From positions 1-64,000 of the IMG/VR virus record IMGVR_UViG_3300011115_000716: a DNA stretch of 64,000 nt. One strand, written 5' to 3'. Source of the DNA: a virus. Below, piece by piece: positions 1 to 9,224 of this stretch (the first letter of the stretch is position 1; every line of letters starts with the position of its first letter). The notes beneath the pieces were generated by a model. It searched no databases and had not been told where the DNA came from. It saw nothing but the letters and a program-made list of their open reading frames with translations. A program made the translations under genes and the position numbers.

Positions 1-1946
1 CCATCAACAAGAGGCACAACAATTTCAGCGTTGTGACCATCAATAGTCATACTGTCACTGTAACCCCAAGCCTTACGGCGTTCTTCATCCCACTGACGAG
101 TCTCATCAACAAAGCCTAAGGCAGTAATAACACCAGCCCTACGTAATCTGTGAATGATTTGGTCTTGTTCCTTAGCGTTATACCAAACACCATCAGTAAT
201 AACAATAAGAATCTTAATAGCACGCTCACTGTTAGCAAAGACATACTTGGCATAGTCAAGTGCTTGCTTAGGGCTAGTGCCACCAGCAGTGCCAACGAAT
301 GTCTTAGTTACCTTAGCCTTTTGATTAGCACTGTATAACATACGAGCATCATCAGCAAAGGTAAGCACTGTAGTGCTAGCACCTATCTTATCCATAGCAC
401 GCTTGATAGCCCACATAGAATCGTGTGCTGACTCGATAGTCCAGTTCATAGAGCCAGAGTTATCTAGCAAGATGACTGTCTCAATGTCTACGACATCTTC
501 ACGACCTTCATCCCATCTATCAAACACTTCATCAACAGCACCACCAGTAGCGTAACGATACACACTAAGTTTGCCACCACTAACTTTACGCTCCCAACCT
601 GGGTCATGCTCAGCACGGATAAGTTCTAGTTGATTAACAAAGGACTTGACTTGCTGTATAACTTCAGGTGCTACAGGTTTTTGCTGCTCGTAATTACTAC
701 GGGCTGGTGTTGGTTGATGCTTACTAGATAAAGTAGTCTCACCATTAAAGTTAGCAACCATATCATTGATATCTTCACGCAATGTATTCTTAATATTAGT
801 AAGATGCTTCTTAGCAATACTAGTTATATCATTTACCATACCAGGCTTAGGTTTACCACCAACAGATTGACTACTAGGCTTATCTGAATCACCATCACCA
901 GGCTTATCATTATCACCATCACCGTCACCGTCACTATCACCGTCACCATCACCAGGCTTATCACCAGGTTTATCTCCAGGTTGGTCACCAGGTTCAGGCT
1001 TATCATACTCTTCACCTTCTTCATCACCAGTAGACTCTGTGAACTCTTTGTCACGTTCCTTAAGAATCTTCTCAATGATACGGTCTTGACCTGCCTTAGG
1101 CATAGGTTTAGAACGTTCTGATGACTTGATGATAGAACCTTTGCCATCTTCATTCATATTAGGCATCTCTTGCCAACCACCATGTGGGTTACCATAAGGT
1201 GGATTCTTAGCAGGGTCCTTGAATGCTTCGTGAATGATGTCATGATACTCTTTGATGAGTTGCATTGCTATAGGTATCTGAGCACTGTCTGCTAAGTTAA
1301 GCACTGTGTATTTACTGATGATGTCAGATAACTCAGTGACTAACTCAGGCAGAACGAATGCCTTACGCAATGCTTTACGTAACTCAAGTGGAAGGTATGT
1401 TCTACCGTCTATTAACGGAAACAACATACCTAACTCAGTTGGGTTATCAATTAGATACTTAGCAATAGCTGCAGTAAACCAGTGCTTAACGTTACTATAC
1501 TTAGCACTTAAGAATACTTCAGTACGCTGGCTCTCTAGTGCATTGAACGCACGCTCATACTGATTACCACGAACCCACTTGACTAAATTACTACCAGCAC
1601 GAGGTGTTAATAAGATACGACCTATCTCGTGCAGAGATACACCACGAAGTTGCAACGCAACATCAGGGTCATTCAAGTCTCCAATATTTTTGGGATTGAA
1701 TGTAATATTCTCTGCATCTGATATAGCAATGGTACCTTTAGGCAACTCATAGAACTTATCTTTATCATCAGATACTGATACGTTAATCTGCCTAGCAGTT
1801 AACGCACTAGCAAACTTAGATACGACTTGAGCCATGCGTTCTTTTAGTTCATCTTGTCTATCAATAACATTAGTATTGTCAACCTTAAAGTCAATATCAA
1901 TACCAAGTTCATCATAATCAAATGAACCACGACCAATTTCAGTCAT
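1..1946 (-). CDS. VWA (MIDAS) domain protein, CobT-like partner of the MoxR ATPase; 3' end lies outside the window
   Basis: Not in the ORF track; translated by hand from ATG 1946 (SD AAGGAG). Motifs LHEIGRIL..FNALESQRTE, D/G/P-rich linker, ILLDNSGSM, GGT, VITDG. Confidence 0.88.
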   Translation of the reverse strand, partial: MTEIGRGSFDYDELGIDIDFKVDNTNVIDRQDELKERMAQVVSKFASALTARQINVSVSDDKDKFYELPKGTIAISDAENITFNPKNIGDLNDPDVALQLRGVSLHEIGRILLTPRAGSNLVKWVRGNQYERAFNALESQRTEVFLSAKYSNVKHWFTAAIAKYLIDNPTELGMLFPLIDGRTYLPLELRKALRKAFVLPELVTELSDIISKYTVLNLADSAQIPIAMQLIKEYHDIIHEAFKDPAKNPPYGNPHGGWQEMPNMNEDGKGSIIKSSERSKPMPKAGQDRIIEKILKERDKEFTESTGDEEGEEYDKPEPGDQPGDKPGDKPGDGDGDSDGDGDGDNDKPGDGDSDKPSSQSVGGKPKPGMVNDITSIAKKHLTNIKNTLREDINDMVANFNGETTLSSKHQPTPARSNYEQQKPVAPEVIQQVKSFVNQLELIRAEHDPGWERKVSGGKLSVYRYATGGAVDEVFDRWDEGREDVVDIETVILLDNSGSMNWTIESAHDSMWAIKRAMDKIGASTTVLTFADDARMLYSANQKAKVTKTFVGTAGGTSPKQALDYAKYVFANSERAIKILIVITDGVWYNAKEQDQIIHRLRRAGVITALGFVDETRQWDEERRKAWGYSDSMTIDGHNAEIVVPLVD

Positions 1947-1971
1947 GTATTTCTCCTTTACTATAAATAGA

Positions 1972-1991
1972 GTGGGGGCTTACGCCCCCAC
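1972..1991 (-). terminator. GC-rich hairpin (GTAA tetraloop) between the MoxR and VWA genes
   Basis: GTGGGGGC-GTAA-GCCCCCAC on the minus strand, weak T tail. Confidence 0.5.
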
Positions 1992-2002
1992 CCTGATTGA
2001 TA

Positions 2003-3334
2003 CTAGACAGAATAACTGTCTAATGATACACCGATGTCTGCTGCAATAGCATCGATGTCTGCATCAAGACGCATCTTAATTGCTTCACGCTCACCATCAT
2101 CCTTAGGGAAGTTGTTAAGCAATGAATACACTGCAAAGCCAAGGTTAAGTTTCTGTGCTTGGTCAATGAAGTTCATCAGGATACGTGGTGACATTGGTGT
2201 AGTGAACTGGTCAGTAGTCTTGCTTGCTTCACGAATGCTCTGTGCAAACTGTAGCAATGACTCAGACTTGATGAACTTACGTTCTACATCAATATCGTAA
2301 TCAAACTCAAGCTTAGGTTGCATACGGTCAACTAAAGCAACATCTTGCTTAGTGACTGCATAACCTGTGCCTGTGTTCTGGTCAACGATAAACAAGCAAT
2401 CAGGGTGGACCTTGACAACCTTGTTAAGTTGGTCAATGATTAACTCACGCTCATTAAGGACACGCAAGAACAAGTCTGCTGCCTTGGCAGGCATACGACT
2501 TAGTTCATTGATAAGGATTACTGATGGCTGCTGAATCGCAGTAAGGAACTGGCTGTCTTTCCATACAACGCTGTTGCCAACGCCTGTAGGGAAGAAACGA
2601 CCGTGAACTTTGCTCTCGTCAATCTGACGGCTACCTTCAATAACTACGAATGGTAGGTGATTAACTGCTGCAAAGTTATACGCAAAACTAGTCTTGCCTG
2701 TACCAGCAGGACCAGTGATAAGTAAAGTCCTTTGATTATGCTGACAATACTTAGCAACAGTAGCATCGCTAATATTGCCTGGCATTGTTCGGTCAAAGTA
2801 AGGCTTTACTTCTGGTATAACTAGAACGGCATCGCTGTTGCTAGTTGGTGTTGCTATTTCCATAGGTGTCTCCTTAGACATCTCGGGTTGGACAAGTAAC
2901 GGAATTGCTACTTGCTCTTGCACCACTGGCTGTGGTGTGGCTTGTGTTACTAGAACAATTGCTTGCTCATAAATAGACAATGAACTTGGGTCATTCAATG
3001 CTTGGTCTAGTAGATTTTGGAACTCTTCTAGAGCAGACCTTGAACTAGGCTTAGTTGTTTCAGGTAATTTCTTACCTAACTTCACCAAAAACATTGATGG
3101 TGTTATTGTGGAATTGATTACTCTATCTTCTGATGGAGTAGTCTTGAGTGATACTGGCTGTCCGACTAGTAACTCATCTTGTTCAATGAGCACATCGCCT
3201 TCTATCCAAGCACCAGCACGACCTCGACCTTCGCCTAATCGTGAGAAGATACGAACATCTTCAGTAGTAGGAACTACTGCTACTGTTCGCATCTCGCCAC
3301 TAGAAGTCTGAGACTTCATCATAGCTGCGTACAT
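2003..3334 (-). CDS. MoxR/CbbQ/CobS-like AAA+ ATPase
   Basis: Walker A GPAGTGKT, Walker B-like VILINE, VHPDC..N, ALVDR, SPR; adjacent VWA gene. Confidence 0.88.
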   Translation of the reverse strand: MYAAMMKSQTSSGEMRTVAVVPTTEDVRIFSRLGEGRGRAGAWIEGDVLIEQDELLVGQPVSLKTTPSEDRVINSTITPSMFLVKLGKKLPETTKPSSRSALEEFQNLLDQALNDPSSLSIYEQAIVLVTQATPQPVVQEQVAIPLLVQPEMSKETPMEIATPTSNSDAVLVIPEVKPYFDRTMPGNISDATVAKYCQHNQRTLLITGPAGTGKTSFAYNFAAVNHLPFVVIEGSRQIDESKVHGRFFPTGVGNSVVWKDSQFLTAIQQPSVILINELSRMPAKAADLFLRVLNERELIIDQLNKVVKVHPDCLFIVDQNTGTGYAVTKQDVALVDRMQPKLEFDYDIDVERKFIKSESLLQFAQSIREASKTTDQFTTPMSPRILMNFIDQAQKLNLGFAVYSLLNNFPKDDGEREAIKMRLDADIDAIAADIGVSLDSYSV

Positions 3335-3345
3335 ATGTTGCCTTT

Positions 3346-3738
3346 CTATTCGGTTGGACTATCAAATTCAATGTCACTCATAATGTCATTGAACTTGCTA
3401 GTAATTTCCTGATTAGCCATTGCTTCATCAGTGCTTTGCCAGGCCATTGTAGGCGTGCCTGTAATAACGCCTTGTATATAACGATGAGTATCTCCCTCAG
3501 CATTAACTAAATACAAGACCCCGTCCTTAACTTCAGCATTAGGATGCTTCTTTAAGGTTATTTCTAGGAATCCCTGGCTCATTGCCTTGGCTGATTCTAA
3601 TGTTGGAAATTGCATTTCAAGCACTTCCAACGCATCCTCACCGTTAACAATGGTGCAATCTAGGCATTTCTTAACAATGTAATAAGATAAGTTGCCGTTG
3701 ATTTCACTTGCTGTGATTCTAGGAATGTTGTTATCCAT
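3346..3738 (-). CDS. hypothetical protein
   Basis: 130 aa ORF with SD AGAAAGG. Confidence 0.7.
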   Translation of the reverse strand: MDNNIPRITASEINGNLSYYIVKKCLDCTIVNGEDALEVLEMQFPTLESAKAMSQGFLEITLKKHPNAEVKDGVLYLVNAEGDTHRYIQGVITGTPTMAWQSTDEAMANQEITSKFNDIMSDIEFDSPTE

Positions 3739-3739
3739 T

Positions 3740-4390
3740 AGGACACCAACCTTTCTATATAATGGACTACTAACGGTTGTTAGCAGGTTTGTCTATATTG
3801 CTATAGACACTACATATATAAGACTTGTTTATATAAGTAATGCGTATAGCAACGCTGGCAAAATGTTTGTGTTGGGCTCGCCATCGCCCTGTGGTATAGA
3901 CAAGCCCCCTGCTTGAGGTTACTAGTCGAATAGACTTATTATGTAACGCTCAATATACAGGGGGCTTGAGGTGTGTTCATATAATTTGAAATTAAGTTAG
4001 CTAAACTAACTGGGCCATCAGGGTAGTAGAGAACTCAGCACTCAGCAAATTAATCTACCCTTACACCAGGGAACCACTACGAATATACCAGCCAGAGTAT
4101 ATAAGTTCGGCATCTCACCAACTCAGGCTTTGATTGACTGGCCTAGCCACACCAGATGCTATGTACTACTACATAGAATTCTTATTTGTAATGCCTGTCT
4201 AGTTCTAGGGTTACCGGAGTTTCTACACCCTTGTCGTGGTCTATAAGCATTTCAGAGTATACCCTTACTAATCCGCAACCTAACCTCGTTGTATCTAACA
4301 TCTTTAGCCCTTGGTTCTAGACAGGCACTACGCCCTTTACATTTTGTAAAGGTTAGCCACTAGCAACATCTCTGCTGCTAGTGACAGTTC
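3740..4390 (-). ncRNA. Putative ~650-nt structured RNA (chain of about 15 stem-loops)
   Basis: No long minus-strand ORF; stems of 11-15 bp; GNRA loops (GAGA, GCAA) and G-U pairs work only on the minus strand. Confidence 0.6.
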
Positions 4391-4401
4391 CTTACAAACT
4401 A

Positions 4402-4905
4402 TTAGAACTTGTTTAGGAAGTTAAAGTCCTTAACCTGAATTTCTACTGTGCCTGTAGGTAGTAACTCTAGCATCTGCAGTGCTTTCTTGAAGTGAAAGAT
4501 AACTGCATCAATTGATATTGGACGGTTATATGAATCAAAGTACTGAGGAATTGCTTTATACAATTCACCATTCTTCTTTTGCATATCTTCTCTGAATTGG
4601 TAACGACTAAACTCTGGTCGTGGAGTTAGTGCACTAAGGTCAACACCATTCAAGTAAAGAGTTGCTGCTGAATTGCCTCGAATATCTATTGATAGGTTCT
4701 GAACATCTTTAGCTGAACTAAGAAGTGCCTTAGCTGCCTTAACATTCCAAGCCTTGAGGTCTTTCTCATACTTTTCTTCTGCTGCTTTGTAATCAGCATC
4801 ATACTTGTCTCGTGCAGTGTTATACGCTTTGATGCTATCTTCTAGCGTCTTTAACTTTGTAGTAATTTGATTGCGTGTTGCTACTACATTGATTTGTTGT
4901 GCCAT
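4402..4905 (-). CDS. hypothetical coiled-coil protein
   Basis: 167 aa ORF, SD GAAAGGCGGAG. Confidence 0.75.
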   Translation of the reverse strand: MAQQINVVATRNQITTKLKTLEDSIKAYNTARDKYDADYKAAEEKYEKDLKAWNVKAAKALLSSAKDVQNLSIDIRGNSAATLYLNGVDLSALTPRPEFSRYQFREDMQKKNGELYKAIPQYFDSYNRPISIDAVIFHFKKALQMLELLPTGTVEIQVKDFNFLNKF

Positions 4906-4965
4906 TTGTTGCTCCGCCTTTCTAAACGGTTATTGCTATCTGTTAACGGAATTGCTAACAGAAAC

Positions 4966-5133
4966 TTACTTGCTAGGCTTGTACCCATCAGCAAACATCT
5001 TAGCGTTGTGTACTCTGATAGCACCTATCTCTCTATCAACATGCTGTAGTTTTACATTAGCCTTACGCTCTACCCAGAACCAAAACTTCCAGCGTAGTAG
5101 TTGACGATTGGATATCTTACGAAACTCACTCAT
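4966..5133 (-). CDS. hypothetical protein
   Basis: ATG overlaps the upstream stop (TAATG); MSEFRKISNRQLLRWKFW... Confidence 0.6.
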   Translation of the reverse strand: MSEFRKISNRQLLRWKFWFWVERKANVKLQHVDREIGAIRVHNAKMFADGYKPSK

Positions 5134-5276
5134 TAGATTCTCACCAGCCTTAACTTGATGCCTAAGCGTATATACCAAGGCAACTGGCTTATAGCATAGT
5201 CTGATACGTGCCAGCCCTTACAGTCTGGACATTCATACGCATCTTCAGTGCCTGTATATTTATAGTGCTTGTTCAT
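5133..5276 (-). CDS. 47-aa protein with a YxCxxCxGWH zinc-binding motif
   Basis: Hand translation MNKHYKYTGTEDAYECPDCKGWHVSDY...; SD AAGGAAGG; fills the gap between neighbours. Confidence 0.65.
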   Translation of the reverse strand: MNKHYKYTGTEDAYECPDCKGWHVSDYAISQLPWYIRLGIKLRLVRI

Positions 5277-5514
5277 TTGTAGCCTTCCTTATTCCTAGGA
5301 CAAATCCTTCTGAGAGTAGTCCTGATTTAGTTAGTTCTTCTAGTTCTTTCTTGATGTCGTAGAGTGATTGGCACTCTGGACATACAGGAAACTTTTGTGG
5401 GTCATTACTAGGCACGAACTCTATGCCACATACTGCCTTAATTATTTTGCCATTGACATAGCCTTCCATTGCTTGGACTACATCTGTATAGTGGGCGTAC
5501 TTTTGTTCACTCAT
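5260..5514 (-). CDS. DUF3039-like protein
   Basis: AHY...AVCG..FVPSNDPQKFPVCPEC..LY matches the actinobacterial DUF3039 pattern. Confidence 0.8.
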   Translation of the reverse strand: MSEQKYAHYTDVVQAMEGYVNGKIIKAVCGIEFVPSNDPQKFPVCPECQSLYDIKKELEELTKSGLLSEGFVLGIRKATNEQAL

Positions 5515-5750
5515 TAATTTTCCTCCAGTGTTTTATATATCTCTTTCATAAGATAAGAGATATCTCGTTGTAACCCTACTGTCCATATTGCTTCTATGAT
5601 TGGTAGGCTTGGGCATTTGTTGCCCCGTTCTATGTCAGACAGATGACCTAAGGCTACTGAAGCCCTAGAAGACACTGTCCTTAATGTGATGTCGTCTTGC
5701 TCTCTAATTCTTCTTAGAGTGTGTCCTACTGCTGTGTTAAGGTCCATCAT
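5514..5750 (-). CDS. XRE-family HTH regulator, ClgR-like
   Basis: VGHTLRRIR...TLRTVSSRASVALGHLSDIERGNKCPS. Confidence 0.8.
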   Translation of the reverse strand: MMDLNTAVGHTLRRIREQDDITLRTVSSRASVALGHLSDIERGNKCPSLPIIEAIWTVGLQRDISYLMKEIYKTLEEN

Positions 5751-5980
5751 TACTCCTTAAAGTATGCTGATACGGCTGCCCATATGAATGTGATACAACT
5801 TAGCACCATAAAGGCTATACACAATGACATTGCACTAGAGTATGCTTTCATTGCTTCAGGTGTTTCATTCATATAGTATTGAAACTCATACTCGTTAGCT
5901 AACTGCCACGATACAAAGCCACTAAGTAGCAAAGCAAATGCTAGTAGTGTCTTGAGTCCTGTTTTACTCATTTGTTCCAC
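5750..5980 (-). CDS. small two-TM membrane protein
   Basis: Two hydrophobic segments; stop/start coupling. Confidence 0.7.
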   Translation of the reverse strand: MEQMSKTGLKTLLAFALLLSGFVSWQLANEYEFQYYMNETPEAMKAYSSAMSLCIAFMVLSCITFIWAAVSAYFKE

Positions 5981-6141
5981 TCCTTAGTCTCAACATTCCA
6001 AGTCTGTTTAGAACGAGGTGTAGTGCTACCGTATTTTGCTTCTCTAACCTTGAGCCTAGCGATTGCTCGCTTGCTAGTGTTAGGTGGTGTTACAGGTGTT
6101 ACAGGTGTTACTGGCTTGTTAGCCTTGACTGATTTAGTCAT
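5968..6141 (-). CDS. small basic protein with PVT repeats
   Basis: SD AAGGAG before ATG 6141; PVTPVTPVTP. Confidence 0.6.
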   Translation of the reverse strand: MTKSVKANKPVTPVTPVTPPNTSKRAIARLKVREAKYGSTTPRSKQTWNVETKEWNK

Positions 6142-6370
6142 TTGTTTCTCCTTTGAGTATTGAATCATACTGACGACCAAGTTCAACTAGTCGTTCAGTG
6201 TCTTGACGTTGTTTCTCTTCGGTTATATATTGTTCTATTGCTATTGACCTTAGATTTCTTAGATATGATACCTTTTCGGATGCTTCTCTAATGATTTTTT
6301 GCTGTTCAGCAATTTTTTCATCAACGTTCCTAACAACATAATCAGGAACTTCTATATCTTCATTGCTCAT
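6134..6370 (-). CDS. hypothetical coiled-coil protein
   Basis: 78 aa ORF, SD GAAAGGTAGG. Confidence 0.7.
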   Translation of the reverse strand: MSNEDIEVPDYVVRNVDEKIAEQQKIIREASEKVSYLRNLRSIAIEQYITEEKQRQDTERLVELGRQYDSILKGETND

Positions 6371-6634
6371 TGCTATACCTACCTTTCAAATAGGTTGGGG
6401 GGCTTAGCTACTTCTAGATAACGACTACCTGAAAGGTTGCGTGTCTCTTGGTTGCAACTAAGCCCCCGTCTTACCCTTAGAACGCCCCGACAATTAGGTA
6501 TAAAACAACACCGGGGGTCTAAGGGGGCTGTGCCCCCTTTTACTGCTCTCTATGGGGGACTTTATTATAGAGAGACAGAGAAGACTTAGAGGATAGATAA
6601 CCCACTTACTATCCTTGCTTCTATTGGAGAAGAC
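6371..6634 (-). ncRNA. Putative structured RNA or leader (~260 nt)
   Basis: At least six stems, including a 14-bp stem (6398-6411/6454-6467) with G-U pairs on the minus strand. Confidence 0.5.
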
Positions 6635-6988
6635 TTACTTAATGTAGTTCTCTACATATTCTGTTACAAACTGTAGGAAGTTGCTCTCTCTAGTAGGGTC
6701 AGTATCAAGATATTTACACGAGTAACAACCGACTTCTTCTATATTGGCAAGGAGAGAGTCATAGGCGTTCTCTTGCTTAGATATCTCGTTGTTCTCTCTA
6801 CTCATAGGCATAATAACTATACCTATATCAGAGAGTCCTGCTCTTACCATTACAACGGCATTACGGCTTGCTGTAATGATTTCTGTGTGCTTACACCCTT
6901 TAGACTCTTCTATGGTCTCTACGGGCTCTACAGGGCTTTCTTGACGTATCTTATAGCCACAGCCACAGCTACATCTTTTTTCACTCAT
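6635..6988 (-). CDS. hypothetical protein with Cys motifs (CxCGCG, CxH, CxxC)
   Basis: 117 aa ORF overlapping the upstream gene (ATGA). Confidence 0.65.
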   Translation of the reverse strand: MSEKRCSCGCGYKIRQESPVEPVETIEESKGCKHTEIITASRNAVVMVRAGLSDIGIVIMPMSRENNEISKQENAYDSLLANIEEVGCYSCKYLDTDPTRESNFLQFVTEYVENYIK

Positions 6989-7356
6989 CGGTTTCTCCCA
7001 TCAGACACCACTTTCTTTGGCTTATGTGTTAGGTCAATCTGTCGAAGCATTGCTTCTTCTAGACTGATAGTCTCTCCACTTGGTAGAGTGACTTGGATGT
7101 TGCTGTTAGTAGGCAAGACTCTTGGCTTCACCGTAGTGACGCTTTCGTCTTTGTCTCCATTAAGAGCAGCATTTAGGACTTTGTTCTTTCCTATGATTGC
7201 GGCTTTCAACTTTGCCCACTCTTCGTTAATCTCATCTTGACTAGCAAGAGGGTTATTCTTGACATAGTCATACTGAAACTCTCCGTAAGACACTTTGACT
7301 TGCTGCTTAGCAACACGCTTGACATTGTGTCTACTCCGACGATTACGGTCAGACAT
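6985..7356 (-). CDS. hypothetical protein
   Basis: 123 aa, SD AAGGAG. Confidence 0.7.
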   Translation of the reverse strand: MSDRNRRSRHNVKRVAKQQVKVSYGEFQYDYVKNNPLASQDEINEEWAKLKAAIIGKNKVLNAALNGDKDESVTTVKPRVLPTNSNIQVTLPSGETISLEEAMLRQIDLTHKPKKVVSDGRNR

Positions 7357-7459
7357 ACTTCTCCTTTGTGTGTAGTACCTGATAACAAGCGACTTCTTCC
7401 CCTGTACATCTGGGCAGACCAGCTGTCAGGCTCTGCTTGCTTCTTAGCAGTAGCCAAGA

Positions 7460-7516
7460 GTGCCCCGGTAAGACTCGAACCTACCTGTACCAGCCTTGTA
7501 ATACTGGTTTGGGGCT
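7460..7516 (-). ncRNA. tRNA-like element lacking a D-arm
   Basis: Canonical T-arm GTAGG-TTCGAGT-CTTAC, acceptor-like GCCCC/GGGGC, one anticodon-like hairpin ACCAGT-ATTACAAG-GCTGGT. Confidence 0.5.
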
Positions 7517-7568
7517 TGTGCCTAGGTATTATGAAAGCCCCCTAGGCTTAGGGCTTGGTGTGTATGGT

Positions 7569-8051
7569 TTAGAGAGACTTCTGTAGTGCTACTAGAGTCT
7601 CGTAAGCCCATTTAGCCTTACGGAACTCTTCTACGGTTCCCTCGTGAATGAAGAAGACCTCTTCCTGAGAAGCGCCTTTCTCCATCATGCGTGTCATTTC
7701 CCAAGCGCGTGCTCGTGCTTCCTTGCCCTTAGCCAAGAATACGAAGTACGGGTCTGTGGTACGACCTGCGGCAGTTTCGTCTTTCCAGATAGCCTCGGCT
7801 TCTGGGCAGGCGAATACAATAGCAAGACGGTTAGCCATCTTGCGGTTGTTGTTCATAGAGATAGCAAGGACTTCAGGGTTTACCTTAGTCTCGCTTACTG
7901 TGAACAGTGCCTTAGCGAAAGATGTAAGAGCAGCCTTGAAGTTCTCTGCCTTAGTCTTAGCGCCTTGGATTTGACGGGTTAGTGCGTCGCTGGTGCCCTT
8001 ATCGGCAGGTGATGCCAATAGGTCAAAAGCGTTAGAGTATCGTGTTGCCAC
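7569..8051 (-). CDS. hypothetical protein, first gene of the leftward arm
   Basis: 160 aa, GTG start, SD GGAGG. Confidence 0.75.
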   Translation of the reverse strand: MATRYSNAFDLLASPADKGTSDALTRQIQGAKTKAENFKAALTSFAKALFTVSETKVNPEVLAISMNNNRKMANRLAIVFACPEAEAIWKDETAAGRTTDPYFVFLAKGKEARARAWEMTRMMEKGASQEEVFFIHEGTVEEFRKAKWAYETLVALQKSL

Positions 8052-8252
8052 GGTACACCTCCATTGTTGTAGTTGTATACCCTATGGAAGCGGTATAGAC
8101 GGCGGATGCCATCGCCCCCCTGCTGTGTCTCGCACACAGTAATACAAAGTAATTCCCATAAGGTCAGGGGGACCATACACACACAAAACCAAAACCATTG
8201 ACCAACTAGAACACCATAAGAAGCGGTGCCTGTATAGAACAACAGGTATAAC

Positions 8253-8402
8253 CTAACTGACGGCATACCAAGTGTTTATAACAATTGGGATACAACTGCC
8301 AAACACTAGGCGAGCAACTACACCCGAAACGGGCGTGTTGTTGTTGCCGACAATTAGATACTAACTGACGCCAGCCGAACCGATTATAACAAAAGGGATA
8401 CA
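8253..8402 (-). promoter_or_regulatory. Duplicated 42-bp element, probable tandem leftward promoters
   Basis: CTAACTGACG-N13-TTATAACAA-N2-GGGATACA at 8253-8294 and 8361-8402; the minus strand reads TGT-TATAA(A/T), an extended -10. Confidence 0.6.
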
Positions 8403-8476
8403 TTTATTTACATTTCAGGGAACTAATGCCCAGGTCAGACACGCCGTTGAGGCCACTAGATGTCAGGCAGTAGCCT

Positions 8477-8492
8477 AGTTTCACGTGAAACT
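8477..8492. promoter_or_regulatory. parS: parS centromere-like site
   Basis: AGTTTCACGTGAAACT perfect palindrome; core GTTTCACGTGAAAC is the actinobacterial chromosomal parS consensus; intergenic. Confidence 0.8.
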
Positions 8493-8496
8493 TATG

Positions 8497-8511
8497 CTTA
8501 AAACGCCCCTG
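8497..8511 (+). promoter_or_regulatory. Repeated upstream motif CTTAAAACGCCCCTG, copy 1
   Basis: Identical 15-mer at 9210-9224; both precede an (C/G)ATACT box and an ATG. Confidence 0.55.
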
Positions 8512-8531
8512 CAGTATGGCATACTGGATGA

Positions 8532-8822
8532 ATGAGTGAAGAACGCGGTAAAATACCATGTCCTGGTTGTGGGGGGTATCTTCGCCTAAATAATGACACC
8601 CTAAGGTTTGCTCATGAAGGACCTCATGACCCAGATTGTAATTTTAAATCTGTTGAGCCTATAAACTTTCAAGTTATTACTGCTTATAAAAGGGGTATGT
8701 GGAGGTTTACTCCTGACGGTAAAGTAGAAAGAACACCGACTCCACCTATTAGTGGAGAACAGTTTGGTAATTCAGATAATGTCATTAACGTAGATTTTAA
8801 GAACAAAAAGCGTATAGAATAA
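8532..8822 (+). CDS. hypothetical protein with CxxC..H..H..C zinc motif
   Basis: CPGCGG...FAHEGPHDPDC. Confidence 0.7.
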   Translation: MSEERGKIPCPGCGGYLRLNNDTLRFAHEGPHDPDCNFKSVEPINFQVITAYKRGMWRFTPDGKVERTPTPPISGEQFGNSDNVINVDFKNKKRIE

Positions 8823-8841
8823 TATAAACAAAGGATTTATT

Positions 8842-9201
8842 ATGAAGCCACCTAAGAGTAGATACTCTCCAAAGCCACCAAAAGAGACTGTACTAGACAA
8901 AGTAAAAAAAGTTTCTAAAAACACTGTCGTTGGTGGAGCTCTAGGAGCTGCTGCAAGTATGGCTAAAGACAGACTTGCCGGTGAACCAAGCAGGCTTGAG
9001 ATTAAAGACAGAATTGGCGAAGACCCACTGGGCCTAGGCAATGGCCACATTTACTCTGGTGAAATAATCCCAGGAACAGGTGTTTACCCAGAACAAATGA
9101 TGCAAAATGCTGCTGACTGGGGGTTTAAGGCTGCGGCAGGTGTAGCGATTGTTAGCGGTCTTCACCATGCTCTCGGCAAGCAGTGGCGCAAAGGTAAGTA
9201 A
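8842..9201 (+). CDS. hypothetical protein
   Basis: 119 aa ORF, SD AAGGA. Confidence 0.7.
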   Translation: MKPPKSRYSPKPPKETVLDKVKKVSKNTVVGGALGAAASMAKDRLAGEPSRLEIKDRIGEDPLGLGNGHIYSGEIIPGTGVYPEQMMQNAADWGFKAAAGVAIVSGLHHALGKQWRKGK

Positions 9202-9209
9202 AACCTAAA

Positions 9210-9224
9210 CTTAAAACGCCCCTG
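9210..9224 (+). promoter_or_regulatory. Repeated upstream motif CTTAAAACGCCCCTG, copy 2
   Basis: Identical to 8497-8511. Confidence 0.55.

Follow-up and report, generated by a model that had tools for sequence, protein, structure and literature searches.

A conserved internal-loop RNA module on two unrelated stems, a candidate processing signal on early transcripts of a presumed actinobacterial phage

The closest described counterparts of the RNA elements considered here are the RNase III sites of phage T7, whose names (R0.3, R0.5, R1, R1.1, and R1.3) and rough places are presumably those of Dunn and Studier (1983); RNase III sites are not annotated in the T7 RefSeq record. When the T7 early intergenic regions were folded, R0.3, R0.5, and R1.1 were found to have ACUCAAGG...CCUUUAUGAU in common, a part that consists of a 4/5 internal loop and its adjoining pairs and is carried on different lower stems a short distance 5' of start codons. 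Passages of PMC3867540 describe RNase III recognition as degenerate and based on helical boxes, and these passages, together with others in PMC1540722, state that internal loops limit the enzyme to a single phosphodiester, so that hairpins with a protective effect are left at 3' ends. The rpsO-pnp hairpin of Streptomyces coelicolor has a [4/4] internal loop on either side of which RNase III cuts, as described in part of PMC10126417. For RNase P, a section of PMC11143913 describes guides that comprise a targeting sequence and an unpaired 3' NCCA, the RCCA of which pairs with the GGU of the P15 loop, and counts certain mRNAs, as well as the C4 and M3 RNAs of phages, among the substrates of the enzyme. 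Gene expression in phages of the abundant freshwater actinobacteria is little known, and a conserved RNA module would give a direct handle on it.

The window analyzed here is the whole stretch of 64,000 nucleotides at positions 1 to 64,000 of the IMG/VR virus record IMGVR_UViG_3300011115_000716; the phage, an uncultured one from freshwater, has a genome of 90,052 bp. Two elements, A and B, are both read on the minus strand (Table 1), both lie between genes on the strand that encodes the early block, and stand 23–27 nt 5' of a start codon wherever a gene comes next. Coordinates and folds bear out the initial annotation, which had noted long stems (15 and 14 bp) with identical AACCAAG and CUAGAA strands in the same register. 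Because the terminal AG of AACCAAG pairs with the CU of CUAGAA in both folds, the loop proper is AACCA/AGAA, a 5x4 internal loop closed by A-U and G-C pairs. This loop was thought to cap the stems; it instead lies between the outer stem and an inner domain that varies, 29 nt long in B and 101 nt in A. Each element has a perfect lower helix of 13–15 pairs, the conserved 5x4 loop, and a variable upper domain, with 14 pairs, the loop, and approximately 10 irregular pairs in B, and 15 pairs, the loop, 4 pairs, and then a junction in A. Both form the two-helix hairpin with an asymmetric internal loop (about two helical turns) that is typical of T7 sites. The folding energy of A is -46.2 kcal/mol (z -3.0; equaled by 0 of 200 shuffles) and that of B is -36.9 kcal/mol (z -2.3; equaled by 5 of 200), and the outer stem is retained in both.

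Table 1. Coordinates in the window of elements A and B and of adjoining features
Feature	Positions	Strand	Description or basis
Leader motif GGGGCGTTCTAAGGGTAA, invariant	6471..6488	-	three bases upstream of B
Element B, whole	6398-6467	-	14-bp outer stem, two pairs G-U
B outer stem, 5' strand GGGGGCTTAGTTGC (14 nt)	6454..6467	-	covariation, 9 variants
B 5' loop strand AACCAAG	6447..6453	-	sequence, fold, relatives
B inner hairpin, 29 nt, irregular, variable	6418..6446	-	fold and relatives
B 3' loop strand CUAGAA	6412..6417	-	sequence, fold, relatives
B outer stem, 3' strand GTAGCTAAGCCCCC	6398..6411	-	pairs with GGGGGCTTAGTTGC; covariation
Small conserved hairpin holding the ribosome-binding site (ACCUAU...GUAGGU)	6377..6395	-	between B and the ATG at 6370
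Two hairpins, from the stop of the 167-aa gene to A	4334..4385	-	fold and relatives
Element A, whole	4188-4331	-	15-bp outer stem, one pair G-U
A outer stem, 5' strand GTAGTGCCTGTCTAG (15 nt)	4317..4331	-	paired in all cells, 4 variants
A 5' loop strand AACCAAG	4310..4316	-	AACCA unpaired, AG pairs with CU
A inner domain, 101 nt, branched, variable	4209..4309	-	fold and relatives
A 3' loop strand CUAGAA	4203..4208	-	CU paired, AGAA unpaired
A outer stem, 3' strand CTAGACAGGCATTAC	4188..4202	-	pairs with GTAGTGCCTGTCTAG

The descriptor search that the initial annotation had suggested returned A and B as the only copies in the whole genome. Among 4,186 stem pairs (92 stems of at least 12 pairs), A/B was the sole match at 13/13 loop letters, the runner-up reaching 9, and the best match in 20 shuffled genomes was 11. 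Since AACCAAG by itself is not enriched (14 observed vs 12.5 expected), the signal lies in the combination of the loop letters with the stems. Further copies were absent from G000–G004 in strict and relaxed descriptor scans and from 333,493 bases searched with a covariance model of B, a model that cannot detect A. A 15-nt pattern taken from A gave 19 stretches in viral_contigs, namely 4 known family records and 15 chance matches that lack the 3' arm. No module was found in the first 50 kb of Streptomyces phage BRock, and blastn of positions 3300–7000 against the phage collection gave no match. A sequence-based search for hairpins resembling B was likewise negative. In the literature, none of the matches listed with both motif strings was on the subject according to title or abstract, and in one match both strings were present only within long sequence listings.

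Rfam gave 0 matches in the window at the gathering score; when E was relaxed to 10 for positions 3300–7000, six weak matches appeared, all of them unrelated and outside A and B. With ARAGORN, the window yielded no tRNA. The Rfam result bears on the possibility that the internal loop is the core of a small self-cleaving ribozyme, which is very unlikely. Small ribozymes do commonly have this look, two helices separated by unpaired, invariant letters and a distal part that varies, but no Rfam ribozyme family matched with E as high as 10, inspection showed neither a hammerhead nor a hairpin-ribozyme core, and a second conserved domain is missing beside the very small motif. Inspection against known consensus forms also set aside several other motif classes: the loop letters are without the three-base bulge and tandem G-A pairs of a kink-turn and without the AGUA/GAA of the sarcin-ricin/loop E motif, and the 11-nt tetraloop receptor, hairpin-ribozyme loop A, and SRP domain IV loop were likewise excluded.

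In the A family, the loop motif is exact in 4/4 variants (AACCAAG has the same letters in G000, G001, G002, and G004), 152 of 152 cells are paired, and one compensatory change stands beside the loop; the stem is nearly invariant at the DNA level, and the inner domain is mostly exchanged for other sequence in the relative G004. Another relative, G003, has a plain 16-pair hairpin at the position of A. In the B family, which was retrieved by means of the leader motif, the motif is exact in 5/9 distinct hairpins and carries a single substitution in 1/9, and three variants (G001, G003, and L035) have diverged loops, G001 keeping the motif in A. Pairing holds in 97.0% of 135 cells, five pairs are changed on both sides (four of them within the outer stem), and the covariation score was reached by 0 of 500 shuffles. 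The unpaired CC is invariant in all 13 variants of the two families, NCCA occurs in 12 and ACCA in 11, the exceptions being G003 (ACCG) and L035 (UCCA). Judged from these comparisons, A and B are real RNA structure on one strand, in which the loop is kept while the stems and upper domains change, and the loop motif is under selection. The general proposal of a recurring RNA recognition module is therefore supported, and because relatives carry the motif on covarying stems, the concern that no further copies might exist in relatives does not hold.

The G-U pairs in the stems identify the strand as minus, and covariance model scores are 59–74 bits on the sense strand vs 21–34 bits on the antisense strand. 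Both observations weigh on the idea that A and B are inverted repeats acting at the DNA level, where they would mark cassette boundaries and serve recombination as a linker or be bound by a protein. Mosaic junctions do coincide with the elements: the last base of A (4188) borders such a junction, relatives insert small genes from 4187 on, exactly after A, loose ends fell at 4187 in runs X2 and X4, and one metagenome contig has 204 other letters in place of 6405–6512; the near invariance of the A stem in DNA would also suit this idea. However, the G-U pairs would be C-A mismatches on the other strand, every stem change preserves RNA pairing, the antisense score is far lower, and no target-site duplication was seen by eye, so that a role as DNA is extremely unlikely.

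The gene 3' of A, and that of B, differs among relatives, and the two elements can therefore be regarded as generic junction modules rather than one-gene operators. Element A sits inside a 663-nt structured non-coding tract, and the first of the two hairpins 5' of it (4356–4385) shows three compensatory pairs among relatives. Upstream of B lies the leader motif, with further copies of its core at 8509 and 9222 in the same orientation; it may act as a promoter or form the 3' half of a hairpin in the leader. The early region also has a tRNA-like element, and relatives have tRNAs just 5' of ribosome-binding sites; these tRNA genes do not encode CCA. A pairing of the B inner hairpin against the ribosome-binding site was considered and dropped, the pairing not being kept in relatives.

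With B beginning 3 nt past the leader motif, it could be the 5'-terminal hairpin of its transcript, and this placement, like that of A within its structured tract, would fit a purely structural or stability module that needs no dedicated trans factor, such as an exonuclease-blocking hairpin, 5'-terminal or intercistronic, or a docking motif in a larger folded leader. B is not always terminal, since four relatives have approximately 110–120 nt inserted between the leader motif and B, and protection would need the stem alone, which leaves the identical loop letters in A and B unexplained; such a module is distinctly improbable.

Thirteen identical letters on non-homologous stems are what sequence-specific recognition of a shaped loop would predict. 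A and B might accordingly be the site of a sequence-specific RNA-binding protein of phage or host that acts in antitermination, translational control, or protection without cleavage, and the position of B just 3' of a recurring promoter-like motif and of A past a pair of hairpins where the early gene block ends would be in keeping with this. In several relatives, a small basic protein with an Arg/Lys-rich helix, SKRAIARLKVREAK, is encoded directly behind B, but its occurrence is out of step with the motif: the G002 fragment lacks the protein yet has the motif in A and B, and L057 encodes the protein although its B hairpin is without the motif. The basic protein was rejected as the reader of the loop on the ground of this occurrence. 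Neither a boxB-type short hairpin in the shared module (folds of A and B), as a nut-type site would have, nor an RNA-binding domain in the ten neighboring proteins scanned was seen, and G001 keeps the motif in only one of its two elements. Recognition by such a protein is, on balance, unlikely but deserves to be kept in mind.

The host is probably an actinobacterium, judging from gene content: the phage encodes two WhiB genes, the WhiB relatives confirmed in genome_contigs are from Actinomycetota in 14 of 14 cases, and the closest cultured terminases are those of Streptomyces phages at approximately 50% identity; the DUF3039 protein had no relative in genome_contigs. The order of one WhiB relative, a Ca. 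Planktophila genome, was taken as the candidate host order. RNase III is present in 17/17 genomes of this order, and neither an RNase III domain nor a dsRBD was found in the phage. Mimicry of the rpsO-pnp leader or of the rRNA operon flanks of this order was considered and rejected: the rpsO-pnp leaders of the order (17 genomes searched, 16 loci) are without AACCAAG and CTAGAA, and four of its rRNA operons are without AACCAAG. In G020, a whole genome of the same order, no module was found above control (strict descriptor, 4 vs 3 in the reversed sequence; relaxed, 13 vs 15).

A and B are best explained as cis-acting RNA elements on the minus-strand early transcripts of this 90-kb, presumably actinobacterial phage. 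Related phages keep the loop as well, and it therefore most probably marks a point at which long early messages are cut or protected by an enzyme of the host. The reading that we tentatively prefer, as a good possibility somewhat short of an even chance, is that both are T7-type processing and stability signals that may be cut by host RNase III. The quasi-continuous helix would be bound by the double-strand-specific host enzyme, and the internal loop would confine the cut to a single place beside it. Of the two products of the long early message, the upstream one would then have a protective hairpin at its end and the downstream one a short leader of fixed length. We infer cleavage as such, as well as the enzyme and the site of the cut. 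Because recognition by RNase III is degenerate in the account given in part of PMC3867540, the strict identity of 13 letters and the invariant unpaired CC are left unexplained by this reading.

Several other observations weigh against processing by RNase III. Instead of a one-turn helix, A has a branched domain of 101 nt as its upper part. The T7 loop is not homologous, the rpsO-pnp leaders and rRNA flanks are not copied, G020 lacks a module above control, and the B loops of G001, G003, and L035 have diverged.

The invariant CC would find a place if the module were an intramolecular RNase P site resembling a guide sequence, cut at the loop/stem junction of the 3' strand. The 5' strand of the outer stem with the unpaired A-ACCA would mimic the 3' half of a tRNA acceptor stem, the discriminator, and CCA; the 3' strand would be the target and its unpaired purine run AGAA the 5' leader. 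The phage would in this way encode a guide of 13–15 nt plus ACCA in its own early message that has the opposite strand cut by host RNase P, a tRNA-processing ribozyme, at a fixed point 5' of the next gene. The guide requirement and the phage RNA substrates described in the section of PMC11143913 mentioned above are in favor of this idea, as are the frequencies of CC, NCCA, and ACCA among the 13 variants. The outer helix of 13–15 pairs compares with 12 in the stacked acceptor and T stems, and the tRNA-like element in the same early region and the relatives' tRNAs just 5' of ribosome-binding sites would also fit. In a genome of the candidate host order, the host assignment being itself presumed, the RNase P RNA is of class A and has a GGGUA, which we take, independently of any annotation, to lie in the P15 loop. 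In the same genome, 10 of 32 tRNA genes encode CCA, and A is the commonest base in tRNA leaders at -2 (17/32) and -1 (10/32), which fits ...AGAA.

RNase P cleavage is nevertheless rather improbable. An extra base stands between the last Watson-Crick pair and ACCA, and this one-base offset would call for either a +1/72 pair of the A-A or G-A type or a change of register. The CCA is internal, and the AG/CU helix ties leader and trailer into a closed 5x4 loop that may bar access; the single-stranded leader amounts to four unpaired bases (AGAA) before the closing helix. Such a site accounts for neither the conserved AG/CU pairs nor the G in CUAGAA, G003 and L035 depart from ACCA, and the tRNA genes of relatives do not encode CCA. 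The coincidence also weighs less because RNase P was arrived at after several other motif classes had been rejected.

Exact RNA ends follow from the module as predictions, and it would reveal whether this phage group, too, processes its messages in the T7 style. If RNase P were the enzyme, the guide-sequence technique would have a counterpart in nature, and messenger RNA would be punctuated in a new way, with hairpins joining the tRNA-like element and the tRNAs before genes as a form of tRNA punctuation. The module might also find use as a compact insulator part in actinobacterial gene expression.

Among known systems, the external guide sequences and natural non-tRNA substrates of RNase P (P1/P7 C4 precursor, M3 RNA, and 4.5S precursor) may resemble A and B in having an unpaired NCCA after one strand of a helix and a single-stranded leader before the other, and a part of PMC11143913 provides a phage precedent for a leader RNA processed by this enzyme. 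In A and B, by contrast, guide and target are one molecule, and the CCA is internal, with a one-base offset, in a closed loop. The S. coelicolor rpsO-pnp hairpin, cut by RNase III (AbsB), is likewise actinobacterial and has a small internal loop, according to the relevant part of PMC10126417. The rpsO-pnp leaders of the 16 candidate-host-order genomes differ from A and B in lacking AACCAAG and CTAGAA. The lambda nut and HK022 put sites, like A and B, are two early-transcript sites per genome with common short letters in differing surroundings, whereas the common part of A and B is an internal loop on long stems, and no matching factor was found. Of the proposal of T7-style RNase III sites, the design stands (a common loop on differing stems), but not a homology of loop letters: AACCA/AGAA in A and B contrasts with ACUC/UAUGA in T7, and against ACUCAAGG...CCUUUAUGAU 6 of 8 letters of the 5' strand are equal while the 3' strand is unlike, which does not amount to homology. 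The lower stem, 13–15 perfect pairs, is longer than the approximately 8 pairs of T7, and the phage differs further in having only two sites per genome, an actinobacterial host (presumed), a 101-nt branched upper domain in A, and a cleavage that is predicted. In both phages, an asymmetric internal loop separates a lower stem from an upper domain, the loop and its adjoining pairs are common while the lower stems differ, and the sites lie between genes or in leaders, shortly 5' of start codons.

The 90,052-bp virus record carries direct terminal repeats, and the window, its first 64 kb, codes for a terminase, portal, tail sheath, baseplate and family A DNA polymerase. Mostly small minus-strand genes fill bases 1–9,200, and this early block contains elements A and B, two long RNA stems with the same internal loop, AACCAAG on the 5' strand and CUAGAA on the 3' strand (table below). 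The AAA_5/VWA gene pair lies downstream of a structured non-coding tract: of the gap after A, approximately 450 nt are non-coding and highly structured, and within them a block reading GAATTCTATGTAG...ATCTGGTGTGGCTAGGCCAGTCAATCAAAGCC is kept in all four relatives, the distant G003 included. Of the 12 sequences searched, 8 have a conserved small basic protein (MTKSVKANKP...SKRAIARLKVREAK...); its gene comes first after B in several relatives, and its predicted arginine/lysine-rich helix suggests nucleic-acid binding.

Features of the early block and WhiB-like genes of the phage (positions in the window unless marked G000, the whole record)
Feature	Position	Strand	Context
AAA_5 (MoxR/CobS-like) ATPase, then protein of at least 648 aa with C-terminal VWA domain	3-3334	-	end of early gene block
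Structured non-coding tract	3739-4187	-	after A
Element A	4188-4331	-	663-nt gap between 167-aa gene and 130-aa gene
Small basic protein	5968-6142	-	
Element B	6398-6467	-	264-nt gap; 27 nt upstream of ATG at 6370
caGGGGCGTTyTAAG	6476-6488, 8497-8509, 9210-9222	-	early block
tRNA-like element	7460-7516	-	gap before gene starting at 7356
Palindrome GTTTCACGTGAAAC	8477-8492		just downstream of second leader-motif copy
WhiB-like gene 1	G000 65777-66109	+	beyond window
WhiB-like gene 2	G000 83476-83742	-	beyond window

The letters and coordinates of A and B in the initial annotation proved exact on re-reading of the sequence. Its description of one loop capping two long stems held for the stems, which are kept in the folds, and not for the cap, as the loop lies between the outer stem and an inner domain, which is a hairpin of 29 nt in B and is branched and 101 nt long in A. 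Because the A-G of AACCAAG pairs with the C-U of CUAGAA in both folds, the unpaired loop is AACCA/AGAA. The descriptor search that it proposed, run over the whole genome in strict and relaxed forms, returned A and B only and no third copy. When stems at least 12 bp long were compared in 4,186 pairs, only A and B had all 13 loop letters in common (the runner-up has 9), and this identity was reached in none of 20 shuffled genomes.

Four related virus records were found via the AAA_5 protein: the fragments G001 (91% identity) and G002 (88%), and the complete G003 (90.7 kb, 64%) and G004 (94.4 kb, with fragment G005, 79%). The claim of a recurring RNA module is supported by the relatives. A was found with both loop strands identical in G001, G002 and G004; the loop-adjacent G-C pair becomes A-U or G-U among the variants, all 152 cells of the family are paired, and the inner domain is largely different in G004. 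At the position of A, G003 has a plain 16-pair hairpin. Further B-type hairpins were fetched with the leader motif, an invariant sequence of 17 nt that stands shortly before B; this gave 9 stretches from viral contigs (one unrelated) and 34 from metagenome contigs, 24 of the combined stretches being unrelated by the upstream hairpin test. Nine distinct B hairpins remained after duplicates were dropped: five have exactly AACCAAG/CUAGAA, one has GACCAAG/CUAGAA, and three have diverged loops (GACCACG/CUAUUAA, GACCGUG/CUAUAGA and UUCCAAG/CUAUUGA). In this family 97.0% of 135 cells are paired, and the outer stem covaries, with four pairs changed on both sides and a score equalled in 0 of 500 shuffles. 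Every one of the 13 variants, nine of B and four of A, retains the CC of the 5' loop strand. The G-U pairs and the much lower covariance-model scores on the opposite strand show that the selected molecule is the minus-strand RNA.

In the conserved leader to which B belongs, two hairpins, the first of them GC-rich, are followed by the invariant GGGGCGTTCTAAGGGTAA, then by B, and last by a small hairpin with the ribosome-binding site. The motif caGGGGCGTTyTAAG, present three times in the early block and in several copies in relatives, may be a phage-specific promoter; the copy upstream of B is preceded by a near-complement and could therefore form one side of a leader hairpin instead. The palindrome GTTTCACGTGAAAC is parS-like. 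Four related sequences, L020 (8922–9038), L036, L055 and L057, have an extra module of approximately 110–120 nt between leader motif and B, reading GUGAGUGUAAUAAAGCGG...GGCUCACUAA in three of them; this module could be another cassette of structured RNA. Since the genes behind A and behind B vary among relatives, and contigs of other samples either stop precisely where A ends on its 3' side or have B replaced, A and B are generic junction modules.

The two WhiB-like genes indicate an actinophage. Confirmed WhiB relatives in genome contigs all belong to Actinomycetota (14 of 14, one a Ca. Planktophila genome, whose order is the candidate host order); the phage also encodes a DUF3039 protein, and the closest cultured terminases are those of Streptomyces phages. 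Sequencing runs with parts of the window are labeled lake, river or aquaculture water, which is a lead only because most contain small shares of it.

RNase III-type processing signals are, tentatively, the best single explanation of A and B. When the T7 early intergenic regions were folded, ACUCAAGG...CCUUUAUGAU was common to the sites that we take, by name and rough place, to be R0.3, R0.5 and R1.1; it makes up a 4/5 internal loop with adjoining pairs on differing lower stems, the same design as A and B. All 17 genomes sampled from the candidate host order have RNase III, and none was found in the phage itself. Passages of two sources state that internal loops restrict RNase III to one cut and that protective hairpins remain (PMC3867540; PMC1540722), and a passage of another describes cutting by the S. 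coelicolor enzyme at a [4/4] loop (PMC10126417). However, RNase III does not depend on specific letters in a loop, A has no simple helix in its upper part, the motif copies neither the rpsO-pnp leader nor the rRNA operons of the candidate host order, and a search of one complete genome from this order did not find the module. A site for a sequence-specific binding protein is a less probable alternative; the sole candidate seen, the small basic protein, is not distributed like the motif. A ribozyme, a purely structural role and action at the DNA level are less likely.

A more daring and doubtful reading is an external-guide-sequence-like RNase P site within the phage's own message. The loop letters N-ACCA, of which CC is invariant, directly follow a helix of 13–15 pairs, with an unpaired purine leader opposite; an external guide sequence on its target is arranged in this way according to PMC11143913. 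The RNase P RNA of a host-order genome, the A-rich tRNA leaders of that genome, the tRNA-like element and the placing of tRNAs in front of genes by relatives fit this possibility, but the register is offset by one base, the loop is closed, and the relatives' tRNAs lack an encoded CCA. The tRNA-like element has a 5-pair acceptor-like stem, a 6-pair arm with an 8-nt loop and a canonical T arm (GGUUCGAGUC), and it lacks both a D arm and an encoded CCA. Its region (121 nt) folds with an MFE of -45.5 kcal/mol (z -3.2), and the element could serve RNase P or RNase Z as a processing signal.

The AACCAAG/CUAGAA module matches no Rfam family, and no mention of it was found in the literature searched. 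The kind of element is already known from T7, in which two stems separated by an internal loop stand at the gene junctions of the early region.
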